From assembly GCF_007748075.1 (NCBI RefSeq), contig NZ_CP036280.1, forward strand, positions 690,001 through 722,000: a stretch of 32,000 nucleotides of DNA. Reading direction: 5' to 3'. Both the position numbers and the translations under genes were made by a program. This document shows, one piece after another, positions 3,697 through 18,199 of this stretch; positions within the stretch are counted from its first letter, which is position 1; every line of letters begins with the position of its first letter. The notes beneath the pieces were generated by a model. That model saw only the letters and a list, made by a program, of their open reading frames with translations, did no database searches and had not been told where the DNA came from. The DNA comes from Mucisphaera calidilacus. Its GTDB lineage: Bacteria; Planctomycetota; Phycisphaerae; Phycisphaerales; Phycisphaeraceae.

Positions 3697-4770
3697 TCAG
3701 CCGATGGCGACTTCCTTGCCGCCCTGCTCGGCGGACTGGTAGACGCCGTCGAGCATCTGCTGGACCATCAGGCCGTGTTCGGCGGGCGCGATCGTCGGGC
3801 CGTCGTTGATGCAGTGCTCGACGAACTGTCCGAGTTTGAGCGGGAAGTACTCGGGGTAGCTGGTGTCCCGGATCCAGCCGGGCTTGATGTTGAGCATGTG
3901 GCCGTGCTCGTCGGTGCGAACGGTGGCGTCTTCCCAGGTGGCCCCGCCCTTGGTTCCGTAGAGTTCGAAGTCCATCTTGTCCTCGAGGTGACCCGCGAAG
4001 GAGGCCTCGATGTGGATGACGGCGCCGTTCTCGAAGCGGATGGTGCCGACGGCGATGTCCTCGACGGTGTAGGTCTCGTGGTCCCAGCCGGCCCAGGGGG
4101 TGTGGATCTCGGTGGAGGGCTGGTCGCCGATGTAGGTTCGTGTCAGGCCGGTCGCGGCGACGGGCCTGGGCGATCCCATGACGTAGTGGCACTGCTCGAG
4201 CATGTGGACGCCGATGTCGATCATCGGCCCGCCGCCCTGGAGGTCCTTGCGGCCGAAGACGCCCCAGTTGGGGATGCCGCGGCGGCGCAGGGCCTGGACG
4301 CGTCCGTAGAAGATGTCGCCGAAGACACCGTCGTCGGCCATCCGCTTGAGGTACTGGGTGCGGGAGTCGAAGCGGAACTGGAATCCGATGACGAGCTTCT
4401 TGCCGGCGGCGTTGGCGGCGTCGATCATCTGCCGGGCCTCGGCGGCGTTCATCGCCATCGGCTTCTCGACGATGACGTGGGCACCGGCCTTGCTGGCCGC
4501 GATCGAGTTCGGAGCGTGCAGGCCGTTGGGGGTGCAGATGCTCACGGCGTCCGGCTGGATTTTCTCGAGCATCTCCTCGTAGTCGGTGAAGCAGCCCGAC
4601 GAGGGGATGTCGAATTCCTTGGCGCGCTTCACGATCGTGTTCTCGTTGATGTCGGCGAGGCCCACGATCTCGACGGCGTCGATCTTCTTGAGGGCCGTGA
4701 GGTGGTTGCCCGCGATACCTCCGGCACCGATGAGTGCGACGCGGAGATTCTTGTCATTGGAAGCGGTCAT
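3697..4770 (-). CDS. Gfo/Idh/MocA family NAD(P)-dependent oxidoreductase
   Basis: N-terminal Rossmann motif LRVALIGAGGIAGNHL and a family-typical EKPMA motif. The ORF runs to 4896, but the ATG at 4770 (MTASNDKNLRVALIG) places the Rossmann fold at the N-terminus and has a GGAG-like sequence upstream. Confidence 0.8.
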   Translation of the reverse strand: MTASNDKNLRVALIGAGGIAGNHLTALKKIDAVEIVGLADINENTIVKRAKEFDIPSSGCFTDYEEMLEKIQPDAVSICTPNGLHAPNSIAASKAGAHVIVEKPMAMNAAEARQMIDAANAAGKKLVIGFQFRFDSRTQYLKRMADDGVFGDIFYGRVQALRRRGIPNWGVFGRKDLQGGGPMIDIGVHMLEQCHYVMGSPRPVAATGLTRTYIGDQPSTEIHTPWAGWDHETYTVEDIAVGTIRFENGAVIHIEASFAGHLEDKMDFELYGTKGGATWEDATVRTDEHGHMLNIKPGWIRDTSYPEYFPLKLGQFVEHCINDGPTIAPAEHGLMVQQMLDGVYQSAEQGGKEVAIG

Positions 4771-4874: not shown

Positions 4875-5804
4875 ATGGCTGAACGGAGCGTTCCATCTAC
4901 CGGGGAGATCTGGCTGGTCATCCAGCCTTGGCTGGTCTCGGTCGCGGTGCACGCTCTGCTGGCGGTTTCGCTGGTGTTTCTGATCCAGATCGGCCCGGCG
5001 GGGGTGGCGGGGGTCGAGGTTGTTGAGCCGGAGGAGGCTCCCGTGGTGACACTCTCTGCGGCTCCCGCGCCGCTGGACGCACCGCCCGTGGCGATGGATC
5101 TGGCTCAGGATCTGGGGTTGGCCCCGGCCGACGGTATGGCCCTGGCGCTGGTGCCCGGACCGGTTCCGGGGTCGGTGACGGCCCCGGGGTTGTCGGCGGG
5201 GGCGGTTTCTTCGCCGACGCTCGATTCAGCAGCGTTGCTGGCGACGGTGGACCCGGGGGCGGCCTCGTTTTTCGGGATCGCGGCGCGGTCGAGCCGGGTG
5301 GCCTACGTGGTGGATGCCTCCGGGTCGTCGGCGGCGGACCTGCCCCAGATCCTCGGCGAGCTGCGGAATGCCGTGGCCGGCCTGGACGCCAGCCAGCGAT
5401 TTACCGTGCTGATCTTCTCTCGTGGCGGCGTCGTCGAGGCTCCGCCCGACGGCCTGAAGCCGGCTGATCCGGGGACGATCTCAAGCGTGCGGGCCTGGCT
5501 GAGGATCGATGGCGGCGTGGTTCGACCGGGAGGGCGTTCCGACCCGATCCCGGCCTTCGAGCGGGCCCTGTCGCTGGAGGTCGAGGAGATTCTTTTTCTG
5601 TCGGACGGGCTGAGCGGTTCGATCGGTTCGGACCAGATTCTCGAGCGTGTGGCTGCGGCCAATCGGGGGCGTGCGACGATCCACACCATCCACCTGCGTC
5701 CTGATGCCGACGAAGAGGGGCCGGATTCGATCATGGCCCGTATCGCGGCGGCGCACGGCGGGACCTATCGCGTGGTCAAGCCACCACCCGAGCCGCTGTT
5801 CTAG
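4875..5804 (+). CDS. Membrane-anchored von Willebrand factor A (vWA) domain protein with TonB/TolA-like N-terminal anchor
   Basis: 309 aa counted from the ATG at 4875. The ORF-track start at 4734 would overlap the divergent gene. Single N-terminal helix QPWLVSVAVHALLAVSLVFLI containing S22-x3-H26, then a Pro/Ala/Val-rich linker of about 100 aa. The C-terminal domain carries a MIDAS motif DASGS (D147-x-S-x-S), then FTVLIFS, GGRSD and LFLSDG as in vWA domains. Confidence 0.7.
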   Translation: MAERSVPSTGEIWLVIQPWLVSVAVHALLAVSLVFLIQIGPAGVAGVEVVEPEEAPVVTLSAAPAPLDAPPVAMDLAQDLGLAPADGMALALVPGPVPGSVTAPGLSAGAVSSPTLDSAALLATVDPGAASFFGIAARSSRVAYVVDASGSSAADLPQILGELRNAVAGLDASQRFTVLIFSRGGVVEAPPDGLKPADPGTISSVRAWLRIDGGVVRPGGRSDPIPAFERALSLEVEEILFLSDGLSGSIGSDQILERVAAANRGRATIHTIHLRPDADEEGPDSIMARIAAAHGGTYRVVKPPPEPLF

Positions 5805-5848: not shown

Positions 5849-6550
5849 ATGAATGATGTTGTTCAACTTGTGCTCGCTCAGGACCCGGGCGACGTGCCGG
5901 GTGGCGTGATGATGTTCTTTCAGGCCGGCGACAGCTTCGGTCAGGTGATCCTGATCATCCTGTGGCTGATGTCCTTCGTGGGTGTGGCGGCGGCGGTGTG
6001 GTCGTGGACGCGGGCGCGCGGCGAACTCGCTCTGCCGAAGAATCTCGAGCGTGGCCTGCTGGAACCGGCTCGTCGTGGCGATCTACGCGAGGTGCGGTCG
6101 GCGGCGCAGAGCCTGCGGGGTGTCTTCGGCCGGCTGCTGCGTGCGGTAACCGGTTCGCCGGTGGGCGAGGCGGCGCGTCACGCGGCGGACGAGGCGGCGG
6201 GCATCGAGTGGCAGAAGCTGACGCGGCCGGTCGAGGCGATCGCCCTCATGGGCCAGGTGGCCCCGATGGTCGGGCTGTTCGGCACGGTCTACGGCATGAT
6301 CCGGGCCTTTGTGGCGCTGGTGGAGTCGGGCCCGGCGGGTGGTGGCGACCTCAAGCTGGCCGCGGGCATCTCGACCGCGCTGGTCACGACGTTCTGGGGC
6401 CTGGTGGTGGCGATTCCCGCATCGATCATCGCGCAGGTGCTGCTGAGTTCGATCGAGCAGCGGTTGAGTGAGGCGTTGTCGGTCGCTCAGCGGATCGCGG
6501 GGATGATGCAGGGCGGCGATCCGGACGCCGATGCCGACGGACAAGGATGA
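5849..6550 (+). CDS. MotA/TolQ/ExbB family proton-channel protein
   Basis: 233 aa with three predicted TM helices. Family signature GQVAPMVGLFGTVYGMIRAF is present. A GGAG sits about 10 nt upstream of the ATG. Confidence 0.85.
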   Translation: MNDVVQLVLAQDPGDVPGGVMMFFQAGDSFGQVILIILWLMSFVGVAAAVWSWTRARGELALPKNLERGLLEPARRGDLREVRSAAQSLRGVFGRLLRAVTGSPVGEAARHAADEAAGIEWQKLTRPVEAIALMGQVAPMVGLFGTVYGMIRAFVALVESGPAGGGDLKLAAGISTALVTTFWGLVVAIPASIIAQVLLSSIEQRLSEALSVAQRIAGMMQGGDPDADADGQG

Positions 6551-6556
6551 TCGCTG

Positions 6557-7030
6557 ATGGGCGTGCGCTCTCGACACTTCGACCGCAAGCCGCTGACGCT
6601 CCCGTTGACGCCTCTGGTCGACGTGGTGTTCCTACTGATCGTCTTCCTGATGCTGGTGGGTACGCGATTCGAGACGGGTGCCGATGCGGCGCGTCTGCCC
6701 GAGCTGACCCTCCCCGGCGAACCGGCCTATCGGCCGCCCGAGCAGCTGGTGATCGACATCTATGCGGGTGAGGATCCGCTGGACGCGGAGCAGGCCTTGG
6801 TGCGTTATCTGACCGTGGAGGGGACGGCGGCGGAGGCGACAGCCGTTGCCGAATCGGTCGCCGCTGCGCTCGCGCGTTCGCCCGGCGTGCCGGTGCTGGT
6901 TCGAGCCGATGCCGACCTGCCGATCGCGACGGCCCGGCCGGTGCTCAAGGCCCTGCGGGAAGCAGGCGTGGATCGGATCCGGATCGCGGCGACGCGGCCC
7001 CGGCCCGAGATCGAGGGGGGTGACGGATGA
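6557..7030 (+). CDS. ExbD/TolR family protein (paralogue 1)
   Basis: 157 aa with a single N-terminal TM containing the conserved Asp (LTPLVDVVFLLIVFLML, D22) and a periplasmic C-domain. It starts 6 nt after the ExbB-like gene. Confidence 0.85.
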   Translation: MGVRSRHFDRKPLTLPLTPLVDVVFLLIVFLMLVGTRFETGADAARLPELTLPGEPAYRPPEQLVIDIYAGEDPLDAEQALVRYLTVEGTAAEATAVAESVAAALARSPGVPVLVRADADLPIATARPVLKALREAGVDRIRIAATRPRPEIEGGDG

Positions 7031-7503
7031 AGCACCACCGCCAGTCACGCTTCGCCCGTCGCAGCAGTGTCGGCTCGCTGCCGGTGGCGCTGGTCGACGT
7101 CGTCTTCCTGCTGCTGATTTACTTTGTGGTGGCGTTGGACATCACGCCCGACCGTGCCGAACTCGACATGCCGTTGCCTTCGCCGGACCCGGCGGCGGCG
7201 ACGCCCGAGCGGCTACCTGTCCAGCCGATGCGCATCGAGGTGGTGGCGACGGCCGAGGGCTGGGGCGCTACCGTCCCGGGGCGGCTGGGCTACGCGACCG
7301 ATCTGGTGACGTTCAAGCTCGCGGTGGAGCGGCTGGTGTTTGATCCCGAGGCGCGCGGGCCGACGGGTTACGTGATGTCTGAGGACCCGGTGCTGCTGAG
7401 CATGAGTGACGGCCTGCCCTGGGACCTCGCGGTGAACCTCGCCGACGCGGCACGACAGGCGGGGCTGCGGGCCGTGGCTCTCGACCCGGAGGTGCTGCCT
7501 TGA
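7027..7503 (+). CDS. ExbD/TolR family protein (paralogue 2)
   Basis: 158 aa with TM LPVALVDVVFLLLIYFVV and conserved Asp (D24). Its start overlaps the previous stop by 4 nt (ATGA). Confidence 0.8.
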   Translation: MKHHRQSRFARRSSVGSLPVALVDVVFLLLIYFVVALDITPDRAELDMPLPSPDPAAATPERLPVQPMRIEVVATAEGWGATVPGRLGYATDLVTFKLAVERLVFDPEARGPTGYVMSEDPVLLSMSDGLPWDLAVNLADAARQAGLRAVALDPEVLP

Positions 7504-10007
7504 TCCGATGCCTGCTGGTCGTGCTGCTGCTGGTCGGGCTTGTGCGCGCGCAGGAGTTATCCGTTGAGGATCTGACCGAGCAGGTGGAGCGTCAGACCGA
7601 GCGGGTGCGTGACGGACGCGTCTCGGCGGAGGATCGCGAGTCGGCGGTGCTGGAGCGGGTCGAGTCGCTGCGGCAGCTGGTAGTCGGCTTCCCGGAGGAC
7701 GAGGCCTACCCCGAGCACCTCGCGAACTGGGCCGAGGCCGTGCTTTACGAGCGGCTCGGTGCGCTGGAGAGTCTGGCAGTGGTATCCCACGAGTTCGGGA
7801 TACCGACCGAGGCGCACCGTCAGGCGATGGAGCAGACGCTTGGTGAACTGATCGAGCGGCTCGAGGCATTTGATGTCAACGACGACAGTGTCGACGAGCC
7901 GCTGCGCTGGCGGCTGCTGATGTCGTTGGCGACGGCCCGGCACGCGGCGGGGTTCCTGCCGGCCTTCGATCCCGAGGACACGCGCAGTGACGCATTGGTG
8001 GACATCTACCGGATTGTGGATGAGATCGATCACCGGCCGGTGCCTGCGGCTGTCCGGGTGCTCGAGGCTCGGGTCCGGCTGGCGCTGGGGGAGCTGCTTA
8101 CGGCAGGGGAATTGGTCGAGCCGCTGCTCGAGGTGGAGCCGTTGCCGATGGACGGCACCCACCGACTGGCTCAGCTCGTGCTGGCCGATTCGCTGCGGCG
8201 ACGTGGTGAGACAGAGCGCGCGGACGTGGTGGTGGCGGCACTCAGTCGTCGGTTGACCTCGGCTGCCGACGCGGCCTGGCGTCTGGTGATTGCTGATTGG
8301 CGTTACCGGGGACGTCCTGATCTTGAGATCTACCGGCCGCTGACGCTCGCGGGTCCAGGCGTGGCGTGGATCCGTGCCGTGCTCGCCGAGCGGTGGCTCG
8401 AAGCCTATCTCGATGCGTCCGAAGCAGAGATCGCATCGCTCCCGCTCTGGGTCCGGACACAGCTGCTGCACTCGGCGTGGGAGCGGCTGCCGGTTCATCC
8501 CGTCGAGGCACTGGCCTTTTCTTCGTCGGTGATGCTCGGCGACAGCGAGCGCGAGCGGCTGGTCTGGGTGGGACGGCTGGCCCGGATGCTCGCGCAGTCC
8601 ACGGACCTGCTGCACGACGCCAGGCAGGAGGCGGAACGGATCGCGGTGCTTGCCGAGTTTGCACGTTCCGATCGACGTCCCGAGGACGCGGTCGCAGCGG
8701 CAGAGGATCTGTTGGATCTGGCCGAGCGCAAGCGTCGCACGGCCGCCGCGGTGCTGGTGCGTGAGGCCGCGGACCTGCTCTGGCCGCACCAGTCGGCCTT
8801 CGTCACGGCAGACGAAGACCCGCTGACACCCTTGCTGCTCGAATCGATCGGCCGCGTCTTCGCCGAAGCGCCCCGGCTGCTGGCCGACACGCCGAACCAC
8901 GTGCTGATGGTGGCGCATTACATCGACCGGGTGGGCGTCGGAGCGCAGGAGGCCGTTGCGTTCTATCGACGGGTGCCGCTGGAGGCACTGGGCTACTGGC
9001 AGGCGCAGCCGCTGCTGCTGGTCGAGCTGCGTCGTGGGGCGAAGGAGACGATCGATCCGCCGGTGCGTCAGCGTCTGAGGCGTGACCTGCTGCTGGAGAT
9101 GGCGAGGCTGGATGCCGAGGGCGCACGCCAGCTGATGGACGAGGACGCCACGATCGCGCGTCGTGACGGGGCACGCACGGCCCTGTTCCGAGTCCGGCTG
9201 CTGCGTGCCGAACTGGCGGCGGAGGCGGGGGACGTCGCGTCGGGCCAGCGATGGTTGCAGGAGGCCGTTGCGATCGACGGCAGGCCGCGTGCGCGGCTCG
9301 AGGTCGCGGTGGTCCAGACCCGTTTCCTGATCGAACGCGACGACATCGCCGGTGCGCTGGAACGACTGAACCGCCTGCCGGCCCGAGAGTCGGTGGTGCG
9401 GCGTCTGGCGATCGACATGCTCAACCGCGTCGGCAGCCGACTCACGCCTGTCGCACTGCTGGAACTCGACCCGCCCGATGCATCGGTAGAGGTCATGCCG
9501 ACCGACCCCGCAGTGCTCGGGCTGGCCGAGCGGCTCTCCGGACGCAGCGTGGAGCAGATCGATCCCGCGGACCCAGACCCGGCGGCGCAGGCCGAGCTGT
9601 ACGCGGCTCGCCTGCTGCGTGCGCACATGCTGCTTCTGCGTGGTGATGCTGCGGCCTCCGCGACGCTCGCGGGCGAACTGGTCGAGGGCGCGTTCGCGAC
9701 GCCCGAGGTCATCGAGCTGGCGGTGGTGGCCAACCTGCGCGTCGGGACGCGCGTGTCTCTGTTTAACGCCTCGCTGATGGCGGATCGCGTGATCCAGGGC
9801 TACGACGCCCCGCCGTTCCCCGATCGCTGGTGGCGTTGCTGGCTCCGGCGACTGCTGATTCTTGAGCGGCTGCGCGTCGGGGTGGCTCAGGTCCCTCCCC
9901 AGGTCCGGCGGCTCCAGCGGATCAACCCGAACCTCGGCGGGCCGGAGCTCAAGCCGCGCTTCATCGAGCTGGCCCAGAGGGCCTCAACGCCGGCCGCGTC
10001 GGAGTGA
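7500..10007 (+). CDS. Secreted 835-aa all-helical (TPR/solenoid-like) protein of unknown function
   Basis: The TTG start overlaps the exbD-2 stop (TTGA). N-terminal signal peptide MIRCLLVVLLLVGLVRA-QE. The rest is rich in Leu/Ala/Arg/Glu and has no catalytic motif I recognise. Strong GC3 bias supports this frame over the 689-aa antisense ORF. Confidence 0.7.
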   Translation: MIRCLLVVLLLVGLVRAQELSVEDLTEQVERQTERVRDGRVSAEDRESAVLERVESLRQLVVGFPEDEAYPEHLANWAEAVLYERLGALESLAVVSHEFGIPTEAHRQAMEQTLGELIERLEAFDVNDDSVDEPLRWRLLMSLATARHAAGFLPAFDPEDTRSDALVDIYRIVDEIDHRPVPAAVRVLEARVRLALGELLTAGELVEPLLEVEPLPMDGTHRLAQLVLADSLRRRGETERADVVVAALSRRLTSAADAAWRLVIADWRYRGRPDLEIYRPLTLAGPGVAWIRAVLAERWLEAYLDASEAEIASLPLWVRTQLLHSAWERLPVHPVEALAFSSSVMLGDSERERLVWVGRLARMLAQSTDLLHDARQEAERIAVLAEFARSDRRPEDAVAAAEDLLDLAERKRRTAAAVLVREAADLLWPHQSAFVTADEDPLTPLLLESIGRVFAEAPRLLADTPNHVLMVAHYIDRVGVGAQEAVAFYRRVPLEALGYWQAQPLLLVELRRGAKETIDPPVRQRLRRDLLLEMARLDAEGARQLMDEDATIARRDGARTALFRVRLLRAELAAEAGDVASGQRWLQEAVAIDGRPRARLEVAVVQTRFLIERDDIAGALERLNRLPARESVVRRLAIDMLNRVGSRLTPVALLELDPPDASVEVMPTDPAVLGLAERLSGRSVEQIDPADPDPAAQAELYAARLLRAHMLLLRGDAAASATLAGELVEGAFATPEVIELAVVANLRVGTRVSLFNASLMADRVIQGYDAPPFPDRWWRCWLRRLLILERLRVGVAQVPPQVRRLQRINPNLGGPELKPRFIELAQRASTPAASE

Positions 10008-14365: not shown

Positions 14366-17300
14366 ATGAACGTGCCTGCCTGGAAGTGGATTCTGGTCCT
14401 CGTGGTGTTCGGGGTGTGCTTTGCGGCTTTCTGGCCGCCCGAGCAGCGGCTCAAGCCGGGTCTGGACCTGGCCGGTGGCACGACGCTGGTCTACACGGTG
14501 GATATCCCCGGCGGTCGTGATCCGGCGCAGGTGATCGACGAGACCATCGACGTCCTCCGAGACCGCATCGACCCGACCGGCACCCGCAACCTCGTCTGGC
14601 GACGCGTGGCCGGCAACCGCGTCGAGATCCAGATGGCCCTCGCCAGCCCCGAGACGCGCGAGCGCCGCGAGGCTTACTACGACCTGCAGGCGCAGGTGCT
14701 CGAACGCAACATCGACCGTCGACGACTCGACGCGGTGGTGCGGCTCGCACCCGAAGCCCGTGACCGAGAGATGCAGGCGATCGCCGGCGACGATCAGCAC
14801 TATTTCGAGAAGCTCCAGCTTTACGCGGCGACGCAGGATTTTGCAGCGGCCCTGCGCGAGCCTTACGAGGCAGCGGTGGCCGCCTTCGAGGAGCAGCAGG
14901 CACGGCTCGACGCGATGCCCGAGGGCAGCGACGGCCGCGCGACCGTCGAGGCTCGCGTGGATGACCTGTTCGAGGCGATGCAGGAGGCGACCCGAGCCTA
15001 TCTCGAAGCCCGCACCCAGCGTGACGAGGCCCGTGCCGCGGTGCTCGCAGCCAACATCGAGCCTTACGAGATCCAGCGGGTCCTCGATCAGCCGACACGG
15101 CCCATCGATAACGATGACCCCCAGGGCCCGACCTACCGCGGCGTCGCAGAGGAAGAGATGATCGCGGCCCACGACGACCGCGCCGAAGTTCTCGAGAAGC
15201 TCTTCGAGGCCTGGACGGCCTACGAGGCGGTCAAGGGCCCGCTCGACGACCCTAACGACCTGATCGCTCTGCTCCGCGGCTCCGGCGTGCTCGAGTTCCG
15301 CATCGCCCCTTACGTCGATGAGATCCCCGCGGAGACCTACCTCGAGCAGCTGCGTGAACGCGGCCCGCGCGCGGGTGGCGATCAGCCGTTCCGCTGGTTC
15401 GAGGTCGACGAGCCGGAAGACTTCGAGCCGGACCCGCAGACGCTCGTCACCGAGTACGCAGGCAACCAGTACATCCTCCTCTCGAACACACGCGACAAGG
15501 CGCTGACCAAGGACACCGAGGGCTGGCAGCTCGTCTCCACCTCGCCGACGCAGGACAATGTCGGTCAGCCGGCCGTGGCCTTCACGCTCAACGACTTCGG
15601 CGGCCAGCTGATGTCGCAGATCACCGGCCCGAATCAGGGCAAGCCGATGGCGATCATCCTCGACAACCGGGTGATCTCGGCTCCGACGCTCCGCAGCAAG
15701 ATCGGTGCGCGGGGCATGATCTCCGGCGGCACGGGCGGCTTCAACCAGCAGGAACTGACCTACCTGATCCGCACGCTCAAGGCCGGCTCGCTTGAGGGCC
15801 AGCTCAGCGAGTACCCCGTTTCGATCAAGACGACCGGCTCCGCGGCCGGTGCCGACAACATCGCCAAGGGCACCTCGGCGGCGCGGCTCTCGCTGATCGT
15901 CGTGAGTGTCTTCGTCCTGCTCTATTACCTCGTACCGGGAATCGCGACGACGCTCGCGCTGGCGTTCAACATCGTCATCATCCTTGGCGTGATGGCCATG
16001 CTCGGGGCGACCTTCACCCTGCCGGGTATCGCGGGCATCGTCCTCACCATCGGTATGGCGGTCGACGCCAACGTTCTGATCTTCGAGCGCATCCGCGAGG
16101 AGCTTCAGGACAAGAAACGCGAGCTGATGATTGCGGTGCGCAACGGCTACGACAAGGCCTTCTCGTCGATCCTCGACGCCAACCTCACGACGCTGCTGAC
16201 CTGCGTCATCCTCGGCGCGACAGCGACCTCGGACATCAAGGGCTTTGCCTACACGCTCGGCATCGGCATCGTGGCCACGCTCTTCACCTCGCTCTTCGCC
16301 ACCCGCGTGTTGATTGAACTCTACCTCTCGCGTGTGCGCTCCCTGCCCATGCTCACGCTGGTTTTCCCGTTCATCCGGACCCTTCTCCACCCGCGTCTCG
16401 ACTGGATCGGGCTGCGCTGGATGGTGCTCCCGCTCTCGATCACACTCGTCAGCTGGGGCGTCTGGATGGTCAACGAGCGTGGTGAGGACCTCCTGGACAT
16501 CGAGTTCCGCTCGGGCACGCAGGTGAGTTTCACGCTCAGCGACGAGGGCATGATGGAAAACGCCGAGGCTCGAACGCGCGTCGAGGCGCTCGGCGAGGTC
16601 TCGCGGGCCATGAAGGCCGAGGGCTTCGACCCCGCGTCGCTGTCGCCCGTGCAGTCCGAGCTTCTCCCCGTCGTGGCCGGCATCGAGCAGGACTCCGCCG
16701 ACCGGGTCGCCCGGCAGATGGCCGACTACGAGCAGTCGATCGAGGAGGGGCTGACCGCCGAGGCCCCGGGCAAGCCCGCCGACCTCTCGCTCCTGATCGG
16801 GGCCGCGGTCGTTCCCGAGGGTGACATCGAGGGCACCCGGGCATCGGGCTTCAGCGTCTCGTCGCTGATCACCGACGCCGACGCTGTTTCGGCCGCGGTC
16901 AAGGCCGCCTTCGCCGACGTGCTCGACACCACACGCCCGATCCGCTTCGCCGATTCGGGCATCCGCTCGGTCGGGCAGGCACCGGTCTTCGCCATCGCGG
17001 AGTCGGACGGTGAAGTCGCGACGCTTGGCGACAACATCGGACGCCCGGAGGTGACCACCGACGTGACCGAGTTCCTCGGCGGTGTGGCGATCGTCCTCGA
17101 TGACCTCCAGCCGCCCGCGACGCTCGACGACCTCGAGCAGCGCATCGAGCGCATGCGGCGACAGCCGGCCTACGAGCCGCTCGGCTTCCGCGAGTCGATG
17201 GTGATCCCGCTCGACCTGTCGGAGCAGACCACCGAGGACGGCACGCCGCTCTACGACGCGGTGGTGGTGGTGACACGCGACGAGACAACCAACTACGCCG

Positions 17301-18199
17301 AGGACCCCAGCGGCATCGTCGAGACCGACGGGCTGGCCGACACCGAGTGGAGCCTCGTTGTCGATGCCCTGAGCCGGGACACCTCGCTCAACTCCGTCAG
17401 CAACTTCTCGAGCCAGGTCGCCTCCTACCTGCGTAACAACGCCATCGCAGCGGTCCTGCTCTCGATGGTCGGTATCGTCGCCTACATCTGGATCCGCTTT
17501 GCCGGCTTCGACAAGGGACTCGCCGCGACCGCGGTGCTCGCGTTGGCGACATTCGCCGGCGGCCTGGGCCAGCTCGTGATCGCCCAGTGGCTGGGGATCG
17601 CCGTGCGTGGCGAGGGCTTCTGGATCCTGCTCGCGATCGCGGTCACCCCGCCCGCGCTGGTGCTCGGCATCGTGACGTGGTACTTCCCCGCGCTCCGCTA
17701 CGGCCCCGCGGCCATTGTCGCGCTCGTCCACGACGTGACGATCACCCTTGGCGTGGTGGCGACCGCCGGCTGGCTCTACCAGCGGCCCGAGCTCGACTGG
17801 CTGGCCCTGACCGACTTCAAGCTCAACCCTGCGATGATCGCCGCCATGCTCACCATCGTCGGCTACTCGCTCAACGACACGATCGTCGTCTTCGACCGCA
17901 TCCGCGAGAACCGCGGACGCCTGCCCTACGTCACCAAGGCGATCATCAACGAGTCGATCAACCAGACGATCTCGCGAACGATCCTGACCTCATTCACCAC
18001 GTTCCTCGCCGTCTGGGTGCTCTACTACTTCGGCGGCGACGCGGTGCACGGCTTCGGCTTCGCCATGATCATCGGCGTCCTCGTCGGTACTTACTCGTCG
18101 ATCGCGATTGCGGCTCAGCTCCTGCTCATCGGCCGACGACCGGTCGGCGATGAGGCTCCGCCCGAGGACAAGCTCCCGCCGATCGTCAGCGAGCGCTAA
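14366..18199 (+). CDS. secDF: Fused protein-export membrane protein SecDF (unusually large, 1277 aa)
   Basis: SecD N-terminal TM plus GLDLAGGT motif. SecD TM bundle with GMAVDANVLIFERIREE. SecF bundle with VALVHDV and GYSLNDTIVVFDRIRE. It follows tgt-yajC as in the classical operon. Confidence 0.9.
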   Translation: MNVPAWKWILVLVVFGVCFAAFWPPEQRLKPGLDLAGGTTLVYTVDIPGGRDPAQVIDETIDVLRDRIDPTGTRNLVWRRVAGNRVEIQMALASPETRERREAYYDLQAQVLERNIDRRRLDAVVRLAPEARDREMQAIAGDDQHYFEKLQLYAATQDFAAALREPYEAAVAAFEEQQARLDAMPEGSDGRATVEARVDDLFEAMQEATRAYLEARTQRDEARAAVLAANIEPYEIQRVLDQPTRPIDNDDPQGPTYRGVAEEEMIAAHDDRAEVLEKLFEAWTAYEAVKGPLDDPNDLIALLRGSGVLEFRIAPYVDEIPAETYLEQLRERGPRAGGDQPFRWFEVDEPEDFEPDPQTLVTEYAGNQYILLSNTRDKALTKDTEGWQLVSTSPTQDNVGQPAVAFTLNDFGGQLMSQITGPNQGKPMAIILDNRVISAPTLRSKIGARGMISGGTGGFNQQELTYLIRTLKAGSLEGQLSEYPVSIKTTGSAAGADNIAKGTSAARLSLIVVSVFVLLYYLVPGIATTLALAFNIVIILGVMAMLGATFTLPGIAGIVLTIGMAVDANVLIFERIREELQDKKRELMIAVRNGYDKAFSSILDANLTTLLTCVILGATATSDIKGFAYTLGIGIVATLFTSLFATRVLIELYLSRVRSLPMLTLVFPFIRTLLHPRLDWIGLRWMVLPLSITLVSWGVWMVNERGEDLLDIEFRSGTQVSFTLSDEGMMENAEARTRVEALGEVSRAMKAEGFDPASLSPVQSELLPVVAGIEQDSADRVARQMADYEQSIEEGLTAEAPGKPADLSLLIGAAVVPEGDIEGTRASGFSVSSLITDADAVSAAVKAAFADVLDTTRPIRFADSGIRSVGQAPVFAIAESDGEVATLGDNIGRPEVTTDVTEFLGGVAIVLDDLQPPATLDDLEQRIERMRRQPAYEPLGFRESMVIPLDLSEQTTEDGTPLYDAVVVVTRDETTNYAEDPSGIVETDGLADTEWSLVVDALSRDTSLNSVSNFSSQVASYLRNNAIAAVLLSMVGIVAYIWIRFAGFDKGLAATAVLALATFAGGLGQLVIAQWLGIAVRGEGFWILLAIAVTPPALVLGIVTWYFPALRYGPAAIVALVHDVTITLGVVATAGWLYQRPELDWLALTDFKLNPAMIAAMLTIVGYSLNDTIVVFDRIRENRGRLPYVTKAIINESINQTISRTILTSFTTFLAVWVLYYFGGDAVHGFGFAMIIGVLVGTYSSIAIAAQLLLIGRRPVGDEAPPEDKLPPIVSER

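Follow-up and report, generated by a model that had tools for sequence, protein, structure and literature searches.

Ton and Tol are the only well-understood routes by which inner-membrane energy reaches the outer envelope of Gram-negative bacteria. A recent genome analysis (PMC12204202; Mol Biol Evol 2025) proposed a class of putative "force transducers" that end in a domain of the von Willebrand factor A (vWA) type, and treats these vWA transducers as a third system. The proposed proteins combine a helix carrying an SHLS motif, a disordered stretch in which a "motor box" is predicted, a Pro-rich domain II of ~100 residues, and a vWA C-terminal domain, and their genes are neighbored by tolQ, two different tolR genes, and a tetratricopeptide repeat (TPR) gene in Proteobacteria, Planctomycetes, Verrucomicrobia, Bacteroidetes, and Rhodothermaeota. 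In the AlphaFold3 models of that study, the conserved His of the helix is placed at the TonB/TolA site of the motor, and its supplement reports that no pal was found in Planctomycetes.

Here, we describe a gene of this type from Mucisphaera calidilacus (Phycisphaerae, Planctomycetota), a named species rather than a metagenome assembly, located at positions 4875..5804 of a 32,000-nt window (contig NZ_CP036280.1, positions 690,001 to 722,000). Judged by its profile match, domain layout, and gene neighborhood, the encoded protein is a member of the recently published vWA force-transducer class. As this architecture was already published in 2025, the interpretation is correct but not a discovery, and the present analysis confirms and extends a published concept. 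The additions are a quantified invariance of the Ser/His (S/H) pair and of synteny in Planctomycetota, natural vWA-TPR fusions, a conserved tail of the TPR-like protein, an ExbB subfamily with a Glu-to-Thr exchange, and an unevenly kept metal-ion-dependent adhesion site (MIDAS).

A Planctomycetota relative of the proposed transducers

The putative vWA force transducer gene lies on the forward strand of the window, as do all operon features given below, and translates to 309 amino acids (aa) that are 100% identical to the NCBI M. calidilacus "vWA domain-containing protein." Translation probably starts at the ATG at 4875, since close homologues begin at the same position and the divergent upstream gene most plausibly starts near 4770. 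This neighbor is a GFO/IDH/MocA oxidoreductase on the minus strand whose start was read from the sequence, the Pfam match of its long open reading frame beginning only at residue 51. The 309-aa protein consists of three parts: a transmembrane helix (residues 13-37), a linker (residues 38-129), and a vWA domain (residues 130-305). This layout of a TonB-like anchor, a linker, and a vWA head had been proposed in a first-pass annotation of the window, and translation, hydropathy, AlphaFold2, and Foldseek all confirmed it. The motif coordinates of that annotation were also correct throughout: SVAVH occupies residues 22-26 (codons of S22 and H26 at 4938-4940 and 4950-4952, respectively), L33 comes seven residues past the His, and DASGS lies at residues 147-151 (nt 5313-5327), GGRSD at 219-223, and LFLSDG at 240-245.

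A word-indexed search returned only 10 homologues, and the larger family counts given here come from an exhaustive profile search, which retrieved 20,310 representatives of 50%-identity clusters at E ≤ 1e-3 and 3,308 at E ≤ 1e-30. The best 150 matches were mostly 300-400 aa long and were matched over nearly the whole profile. Residue conservation was read from a family alignment of 91 sequences at 23-36% identity to the M. calidilacus protein, with three closer relatives at 64-76%. Against the family profile, Tichowtungia aerotolerans transducer 2 (PMC12204202 supplement) scored 65.5 bits (E = 6.7e-13 at Z = 1.8e9), and its S31/H35 pair, its FFG motif, and the first half of its vWA domain fell in register. 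Therefore, the M. calidilacus protein is a distant but genuine relative of the Tichowtungia type member. The M. calidilacus locus shares with the published class the S/H helix, the disordered Pro-rich linker of ~100 residues, the vWA head, and the neighboring tolQ, two tolR, and TPR genes. However, it differs in several respects. The gene order here is vWA-tolQ-tolR-tolR-TPR, whereas the vWA genes of PMC12204202 are often downstream of the TPR and motor genes, and there is one transducer gene here, compared with two in Tichowtungia. The MIDAS is intact here (DASGS, S222, and D244), whereas the Tichowtungia protein reads DANKL, and the compact 309-aa protein contrasts with a Tichowtungia protein of 474 aa that carries a long insertion and an extension in its second half.

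The comparison with the classical transducers is similarly mixed. With TonB, the protein shares a predicted N-in single-pass SxxxH anchor, a Leu seven residues past the His, a candidate strand-like hydrophobic motif, a Pro-rich linker, and an operon with exbB and exbD. However, the Glu-Pro/Lys-Pro repeats of TonB do not occur in the M. calidilacus linker, the fourth residue of SHLS is absent, and the head has a vWA/MIDAS fold in place of TonB_C, with no match to a TonB model in Pfam or NCBIfam. The SxxxH anchor and the three-domain logic are shared with TolA as well, whereas TolA domain III is absent here. In relation to Tol-Pal, the motor proteins of the window score slightly better against the TolQ/TolR than against the ExbB/ExbD models of NCBIfam, all below cutoffs; a TPR protein, CpoB, is also part of tol-pal loci, whereas neither tolB nor pal was found in the operon or window here.

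Two further candidate assignments were rejected. A second vWA family described in PMC12204202 has a trans-pore helix with an ExbD-like Asp and no SHLS, and is encoded next to tolQ only, with no tolR. It has in common with the M. calidilacus protein a vWA head on one transmembrane helix beside a TolQ-like gene, but here Asp is missing from the helix, which carries S/H, and the operon includes two exbD genes. An aerotolerance-type protein of the BatA/BatB kind was rejected on the grounds that there was no match to BatA_N or another Bat-family Pfam model, and no Bat neighbors.

Anchor helix, linker, and vWA head

The single N-terminal transmembrane helix, WLVIQPWLVSVAVHALLAVSLVFLI (4911..4985; residues 13-37), was assigned as a signal anchor from hydropathy and AlphaFold2. 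It is the only strongly hydrophobic segment of the protein (Kyte-Doolittle, 19-residue window, maximum of 2.47 at residue 19), and AlphaFold2 modeled residues 9-39 as one helix with a per-residue confidence (pLDDT) of >90. Within it, S22 and H26 were invariant in 91/91 aligned homologues, while the remaining helix positions were mixed hydrophobics that were freely exchanged. Since the pair is invariant at 23-36% identity while the rest of the helix varies, its presence is beyond chance. A separate sample comprised 99 vWA copies from related genome loci, 9 of them without an aligned N-terminus, and among the other 90 copies the Ser was kept in 83 and the His in 86, the exceptions forming a small AxxxY subclade with tandem genes. 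The S/H pair is thus not lost in orthologues, and the SxxxH anchor is, on this conservation, under selection. The likeness to the E. coli SHLS motif held for its first three residues only: S, H, and L are present, L33 being Leu in 41/91 homologues, and the fourth residue is not, as position 37 is Ile here and V/A/T across the family.

In motif and register, the likeness of the anchor to TonB is real. When the anchor profile was aligned to E. coli TonB, the Ser fell on S16, the His on H20, and the family motif vvvSFdxP on ISVTMVTP. Common descent with TonB/TolA is not proven by sequence statistics, and is not provable in this way, because the shared stretch is too short. A single-sequence search of the PDB with the full 309 aa returned noise only.

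Some relatives depart from this anchor. Two or three tandem vWA-transducer genes occur at several loci (L057, 8412-10759; L030, 3955-6567; L015; L016; L018; L022), and in some loci such tandem vWA genes stand ahead of the motor, as in Tichowtungia (PMC12204202). Both vWA copies of L057 and of L030 have AxxxY instead of SxxxH, and those of L057 are still followed by exbB-exbD-exbD. In other relatives from the vWA subfamily (P0011, P0014, P0018, P0025, P0027, P0056, P0057, P0069, P0084, and P0155), a cleavable-looking signal peptide replaces the S/H anchor. These proteins carry two or three tandem vWA domains and are apparently soluble or lipoprotein versions in the periplasm.

The helix is followed by an acidic, disordered linker rich in Ala, Pro, and Val (4986..5261; residues 38-129), assigned from composition and pLDDT, which is the counterpart of domain II of TonB/TolA. 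Ala makes up 22%, Pro 15%, and Val 13% of its 92 aa, which have a net charge of -10 and include no Lys or Arg, and AlphaFold2 gave it a pLDDT of about 50-60. The annotated TonB-like Ala/Pro/Val-rich spacer is therefore present, at 92 aa rather than the ~100 aa estimated at first. About 20 residues past the helix, the alignment columns point to a candidate motor-box strand, PVVTLSAAP (5040..5066; residues 56-64), at a position comparable to that of the TonB/TolA motor box in PMC12204202. In most of the 91 sequences, columns 56-60 read V/L/I, V, V/A/I/L, S/T, and F/L, and P64 is kept in 57/91.

The vWA domain (5262..5789; residues 130-305, including an F132-x-G134 hairpin before strand beta-1) was recognized by AlphaFold2, Foldseek, and profile comparison. 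Residues 130-305 were modeled as alternating beta and alpha elements with a pLDDT of 93-98, and a Foldseek search with this model matched the vWA domains of ITIH1/ITIH4, Cav alpha2delta, CMG2/TEM8, Rpn10, Mdn1, and integrin I domains (E = 2e-11 to 1e-4, probability of 1.00). The 91-sequence family profile matched the ITIH4 vWA domain at 1e-13; the Pfam VWA_3 match was weak (3.6e-5, 24.3 bits, below the model cutoff of 27). The C-terminal domain thus models as the vWA fold with which it had been annotated. Just before beta-1, the short hairpin F132-F133-G134 (window 5268-5276) is as conserved as the MIDAS Asp, with F132 kept in 91/91 and G134 in 89/91 sequences. This feature is family-specific and shared with the Tichowtungia protein (NFFG).

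The DxSxS motif of the MIDAS, annotated as intact, is indeed present as D147-A-S149-G-S151 (5313..5327), as identified by motif and alignment. The further MIDAS positions are S222 (5538-5540), which occupies the MIDAS Thr position because the family motif "GrsN" aligns to "GGTN" of ITIH, and D244 (5604-5606), which was assigned by the canonical "LSDG" position and not by structural superposition. By alignment, the five-residue MIDAS is complete, comprising D147, S149, S151, S222, and D244. D147 aligns to the ITIH1 residue that was changed in the MIDAS mutant D298A and is kept in 91/91 sequences, followed by S149 in 90/91 and S151 in 66/91, and of the 91 residues at position 222, 61 are Ser and 25 are Thr. 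Metal-dependent binding by the M. calidilacus vWA domain is plausible on these residues. The eukaryotic MIDAS vWA domains (ITIH1/ITIH4, CMG2/TEM8, integrin I, and Mdn1) have the same fold and, by alignment, the same five-residue metal site, but only 12-22% identity to this bacterial, predicted periplasmic protein. MIDAS catch bonds have been reported for Mdn1 (PMC8837202), and MIDAS bonds are known to carry mechanical load.

Motor genes, candidate TPR-like partner, and locus conservation

Four genes lie directly downstream of the vWA gene on the same strand: one exbB/tolQ-like gene, two different exbD/tolR-like genes, and a TPR-like gene. The first encodes an ExbB/TolQ-like proton-channel subunit of 233 aa (5849..6550; Pfam MotA_ExbB, 9e-24), for which the NCBIfam matches to TolQ (4e-16) and ExbB (3e-13) were both far below the equivalog cutoffs. 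The ExbD/TolR-like subunit 1 (6557..7030; 157 aa; Pfam ExbD, 3.2e-15) had no PDB sequence match at E ≤ 0.01, and subunit 2 (7027..7503; 158 aa) matched Pfam ExbD at 1.5e-8. Both ExbD copies retain the transmembrane Asp, as D22 (6620-6622) and D24 (7096-7098), respectively. At two boundaries, the genes overlap by 4 nt (the exbD2 start with the exbD1 stop, and the start of the TPR-like gene with the exbD2 stop), and the operon is partly translationally coupled.

The third transmembrane helix of the ExbB-like protein reads GISTALVTTFWGL (window 6365-6418; residues 173-190), with T176 at 6374-6376, whereas an alignment of PDB chains gives GIAEALLATA.GL for E. coli and Serratia ExbB and GIAEALIATAIGL for TolQ. 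Thr occupies this position in 53/65 ExbB copies from related loci, with the signature GI(G/S)TAL.TTFWGL, and one locus (L023) encodes a second, unlinked ExbB with the canonical GIAEAL. On this signature, the motor belongs to a distinct ExbB subfamily with a Glu-to-Thr exchange.

To place this operon among its relatives, we compared 80 loci from species-representative genomes, collected with a 10-sequence alignment, 74 of which were informative in that they contained enough downstream sequence. Nearly all are from Planctomycetota, mostly Phycisphaerae with Isosphaeraceae and Planctomycetia, and a few have another or no taxonomic label. The adjacency of exbBD seen in the window, where exbB-exbD-exbD follows directly, recurs in 58/74 loci, in which exbB is the next gene downstream of the vWA gene and is usually joined by two exbD genes. 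At least 35 of these 58 end in a TPR-like gene recognized by its C-terminal tail, and all five genes recur in unchanged order at the locus of a 29% identical homologue (P0006). At 7/74 loci, the TPR-like gene comes directly after the vWA gene with no motor between them. Neither a motor nor a TPR-like gene follows the vWA gene in the other 9/74, 5 of which encode long proteins without the S/H anchor.

The last gene of the operon (7500..10007) encodes an 835-aa secreted, all-alpha TPR-like solenoid, as judged from a signal-peptide-like N-terminus, AlphaFold2, and Foldseek. The protein itself has no Pfam match, and 6/36 members of the TPR-like family match Pfam TPR models. Its AlphaFold2 model, built on a shallow alignment of 7 sequences, is a solenoid of ~40 helices with a pLDDT of 80, for which Foldseek returned mostly eukaryotic TPR scaffolds, such as CTR9, Ski3, TTC7B, and subunits of APC/C. 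A profile search for further homologues yielded generic TPR proteins, with few members of the family among the matches. The most recognizable part is a conserved C-terminal tail, RWWRCW...LILE...RLQRINPNLGGPELKPRF (9825-9971), detected with a hidden Markov model of the tail. In the operon-final proteins of about 40 loci (e.g., L075, L082, and L087), the tail follows the consensus W-x-x-W...LE...RL-x-x-(I/L)(D/N)P-x-LGG(EPW)-x-x-R(L/F), and W778 and L805 are invariant in 36 TPR-like sequences that, apart from three close relatives, are otherwise only 12-20% identical to the window protein.

In seven clusters at 50% identity (representatives P0051, P0075, P0087, P0089, P0111, P0126, and P0140), proteins of ~900 aa combine the anchored vWA protein with about 570-640 extra residues. 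By blastp, this extension matches the separate 641-aa protein encoded downstream of P0007 (2e-46 and 2e-37) and the C-terminal end of the 749-aa protein encoded last in the operon of another locus (L002; 8e-8). The fusions and these separate proteins have in common the tail (F/Y)W-x-A-W...LE...RL-x-x-(I/L)D-x-x-LGGEPW-x-x-RL, of which the window protein has a recognizable version. A direct phmmer comparison of the 835-aa window protein with the C-terminal extensions of the fusions found nothing, and the link between them runs via these intermediates and the tail model. The S/H pair is kept in both forms examined (SLAVH in P0007 and SLALH in P0051). The genomic context also connects the forms. 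DoxX is directly upstream of a five-gene form with motor (L002:8001-13121), a split motor-less form (L006:943-3899), and a fused form (L089:8001-10685), and thymidylate kinase (Tmk) follows the split and the fused forms, so that this one fusion, from a Phycisphaeraceae genome of 3.3 Mb, is flanked by both genes. Given the natural fusions and the co-located gene, the TPR-like protein is the leading candidate partner of the vWA protein.

Across the family, copies with Asp or Arg at vWA position 244 are mostly paired with the TPR tail LGGEP(W/Y), and those with Thr, Ser, or Ala mostly with tails that do not have that Glu. As this pairing follows clades, it is not independent evidence, and we did not use it as a contact signal.

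The rest of the window is of housekeeping character, and no TonB_C gene, TonB-dependent receptor, tolB, or pal was found within it. An open reading frame of 1,277 aa at 14366-18199, unrelated to the vWA finding, matches SecD/SecF C-terminal, SecDF P1-head, and MMPL models and is apparently a fused SecDF.

The proposed envelope machine and its alternatives

The view of the protein as an energy-transducer-like topology with a MIDAS head, first put forward in the first-pass annotation, is supported by the conserved S/H pair, the vWA fold, and the exbBD synteny, from which we infer coupling to the motor and force transduction. Accepting this, the five-gene operon probably encodes an envelope machine of the Ton/Tol type that is driven by the proton-motive force (PMF), with the S22/H26 anchor docked on the motor and the vWA head engaging a partner. 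In such a machine, the vWA protein would be inserted N-in/C-out via its single helix, and the helix would dock on the outside of an ExbB5-ExbD1/ExbD2 motor via its S22/H26 face, as TonB and TolA do. After the helix, a short hydrophobic candidate strand (PVVTLS) may interact with the periplasmic domains of ExbD, and the 92-residue Pro/Ala-rich linker would span the periplasm. The vWA head would then replace the C-terminal domain of TonB/TolA and could bind its partner via the MIDAS, through a metal-coordinated acidic side chain. The best candidate for this partner, or for a co-worker, would be the TPR-like solenoid encoded by the presumably co-transcribed last gene. In some relatives, this solenoid and the vWA domain are fused.

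Several observations weigh against this PMF-driven machine or against parts of it. (i) At the anchor, a profile of the N-terminal 64 residues (56 sequences) gave no TonB/TolA match at E ≤ 10 among PDB chains or in Pfam, and with filters off, the anchor profile, in register with E. coli TonB, reached only -2.2 bits. The N-terminal tail has one Arg only here, whereas those of the homologues are Arg-rich; the positive-inside signal is therefore weak in the M. calidilacus protein. (ii) The AlphaFold2 monomer has no strand at residues 56-64, the candidate motor box. (iii) In the motor, the conserved Glu (E176 of ExbB and E173 of TolQ) is Thr, both ring Thr residues being kept, and an ExbB without the canonical Glu may not work exactly like ExbB or TolQ. 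(iv) In the head, position 244 is Asp in only 29/91 sequences. Given the scarcity of D244 in the family and a Tichowtungia protein without DxSxS, metal-dependent binding cannot be the general mechanism of the class. (v) Among the anchored homologues, a minority lack a motor next to them (7 loci have just the TPR gene, and 4 stand alone), and according to PMC12204202, no deletion phenotypes have been reported for the class.

One alternative, which we consider unlikely, accepts docking through S/H and assigns it a different role. Together, the vWA protein and the TPR solenoid would act in the periplasm as a scaffold or regulator by which ExbB-ExbD1-ExbD2 is positioned or gated. The vWA protein would then serve as an anchor or assembly factor at the stator, and would not pull over a long range on an outer-membrane target. 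This would fit a TPR-like partner that is tightly linked and sometimes fused, and an operon and window in which no outer-membrane receptor gene was found, but the gene for the target could lie at another site, which is the usual situation for TonB. Foldseek also lists a periplasmic scaffold of the Campylobacter jejuni flagellar motor (9hmf_K; E = 5e-6) at a TM-score of only 0.16-0.17, which is too weak to interpret, and the TM-scores to any scaffold are low. The disordered Pro-rich linker of ~90 residues, conserved as a feature, argues against a scaffold, as TonB and TolA use such a linker to span the periplasm.

Two other explanations appear very improbable, and to a similar degree. Planctomycetes have many vWA proteins, so the one described here could be nothing more than a vWA protein with an inner-membrane anchor, be it of the BatA/BatB type or a generic adhesin, to which SxxxH and exbBD would be incidental; the sub-cutoff Pfam VWA_3 match, the lack of a TonB model match, and the homologues that are not beside a motor could be read in this way. 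However, an incidental S/H pair would not be expected to stay invariant in 91 sequences at 23-36% identity within an otherwise variable helix, nor would the order vWA-exbB-exbD-exbD be expected in 58/74 loci, with overlapping gene boundaries in the window. This explanation thus fails on conservation and synteny, and no match to BatA_N or another Bat-family Pfam model was found. Alternatively, the protein could be the functional TonB of M. calidilacus, energizing TonB-dependent transporters with a vWA head in place of TonB_C, as its topology and its ExbB/ExbD-like motor would allow. However, beta-augmentation of a TonB box is not the binding mode of vWA domains, which use the MIDAS or surface loops. 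In addition, the window yielded no TonB-dependent receptor, at least one related locus (L023) also encodes an ExbB with the canonical GIAEAL, and PMC12204202 sets such proteins apart from Ton. A part in a Zorya-like anti-phage defense system on a MotA/ExbB-type motor is scarcely credible, since the weak ZorA match of the ExbB-like protein (PADLOC E = 0.0013, 15.7 bits) spans just the generic core common to MotA, ExbB, and TolQ, PADLOC matches none of the other four proteins, relatives hold a conserved housekeeping position (DoxX/Tmk flanks), and the GC content is uniform across the region.

Returning to the PMF-driven machine of the Ton/Tol type, a bolder version of it can be formulated, which we advance tentatively and regard as rather doubtful at present. 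The module may be a third self-contained PMF-driven envelope machine of Planctomycetota, built from a Thr-for-Glu ExbB, a heterodimeric ExbD pair, the SxxxH-vWA protein, and the tailed TPR solenoid, in which an acidic residue, either on the TPR partner or on a target in the outer membrane, would be held by the MIDAS through a metal-mediated bond that bears load. If this were true, a MIDAS bond would replace the beta-augmentation used by TonB/TolA, and the machine might take on the tethering of the outer membrane or the part in division for which Tol-Pal is responsible elsewhere.

A widespread family that keeps the docking helix and carries a vWA/MIDAS head would imply a different coupling chemistry and a further energized process. 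For this family, the M. calidilacus member is a useful test case, as it comes from a named species, has a complete MIDAS, is encoded in a compact and partly coupled operon, and has relatives in which natural fusions point to the TPR-like protein as the candidate partner.

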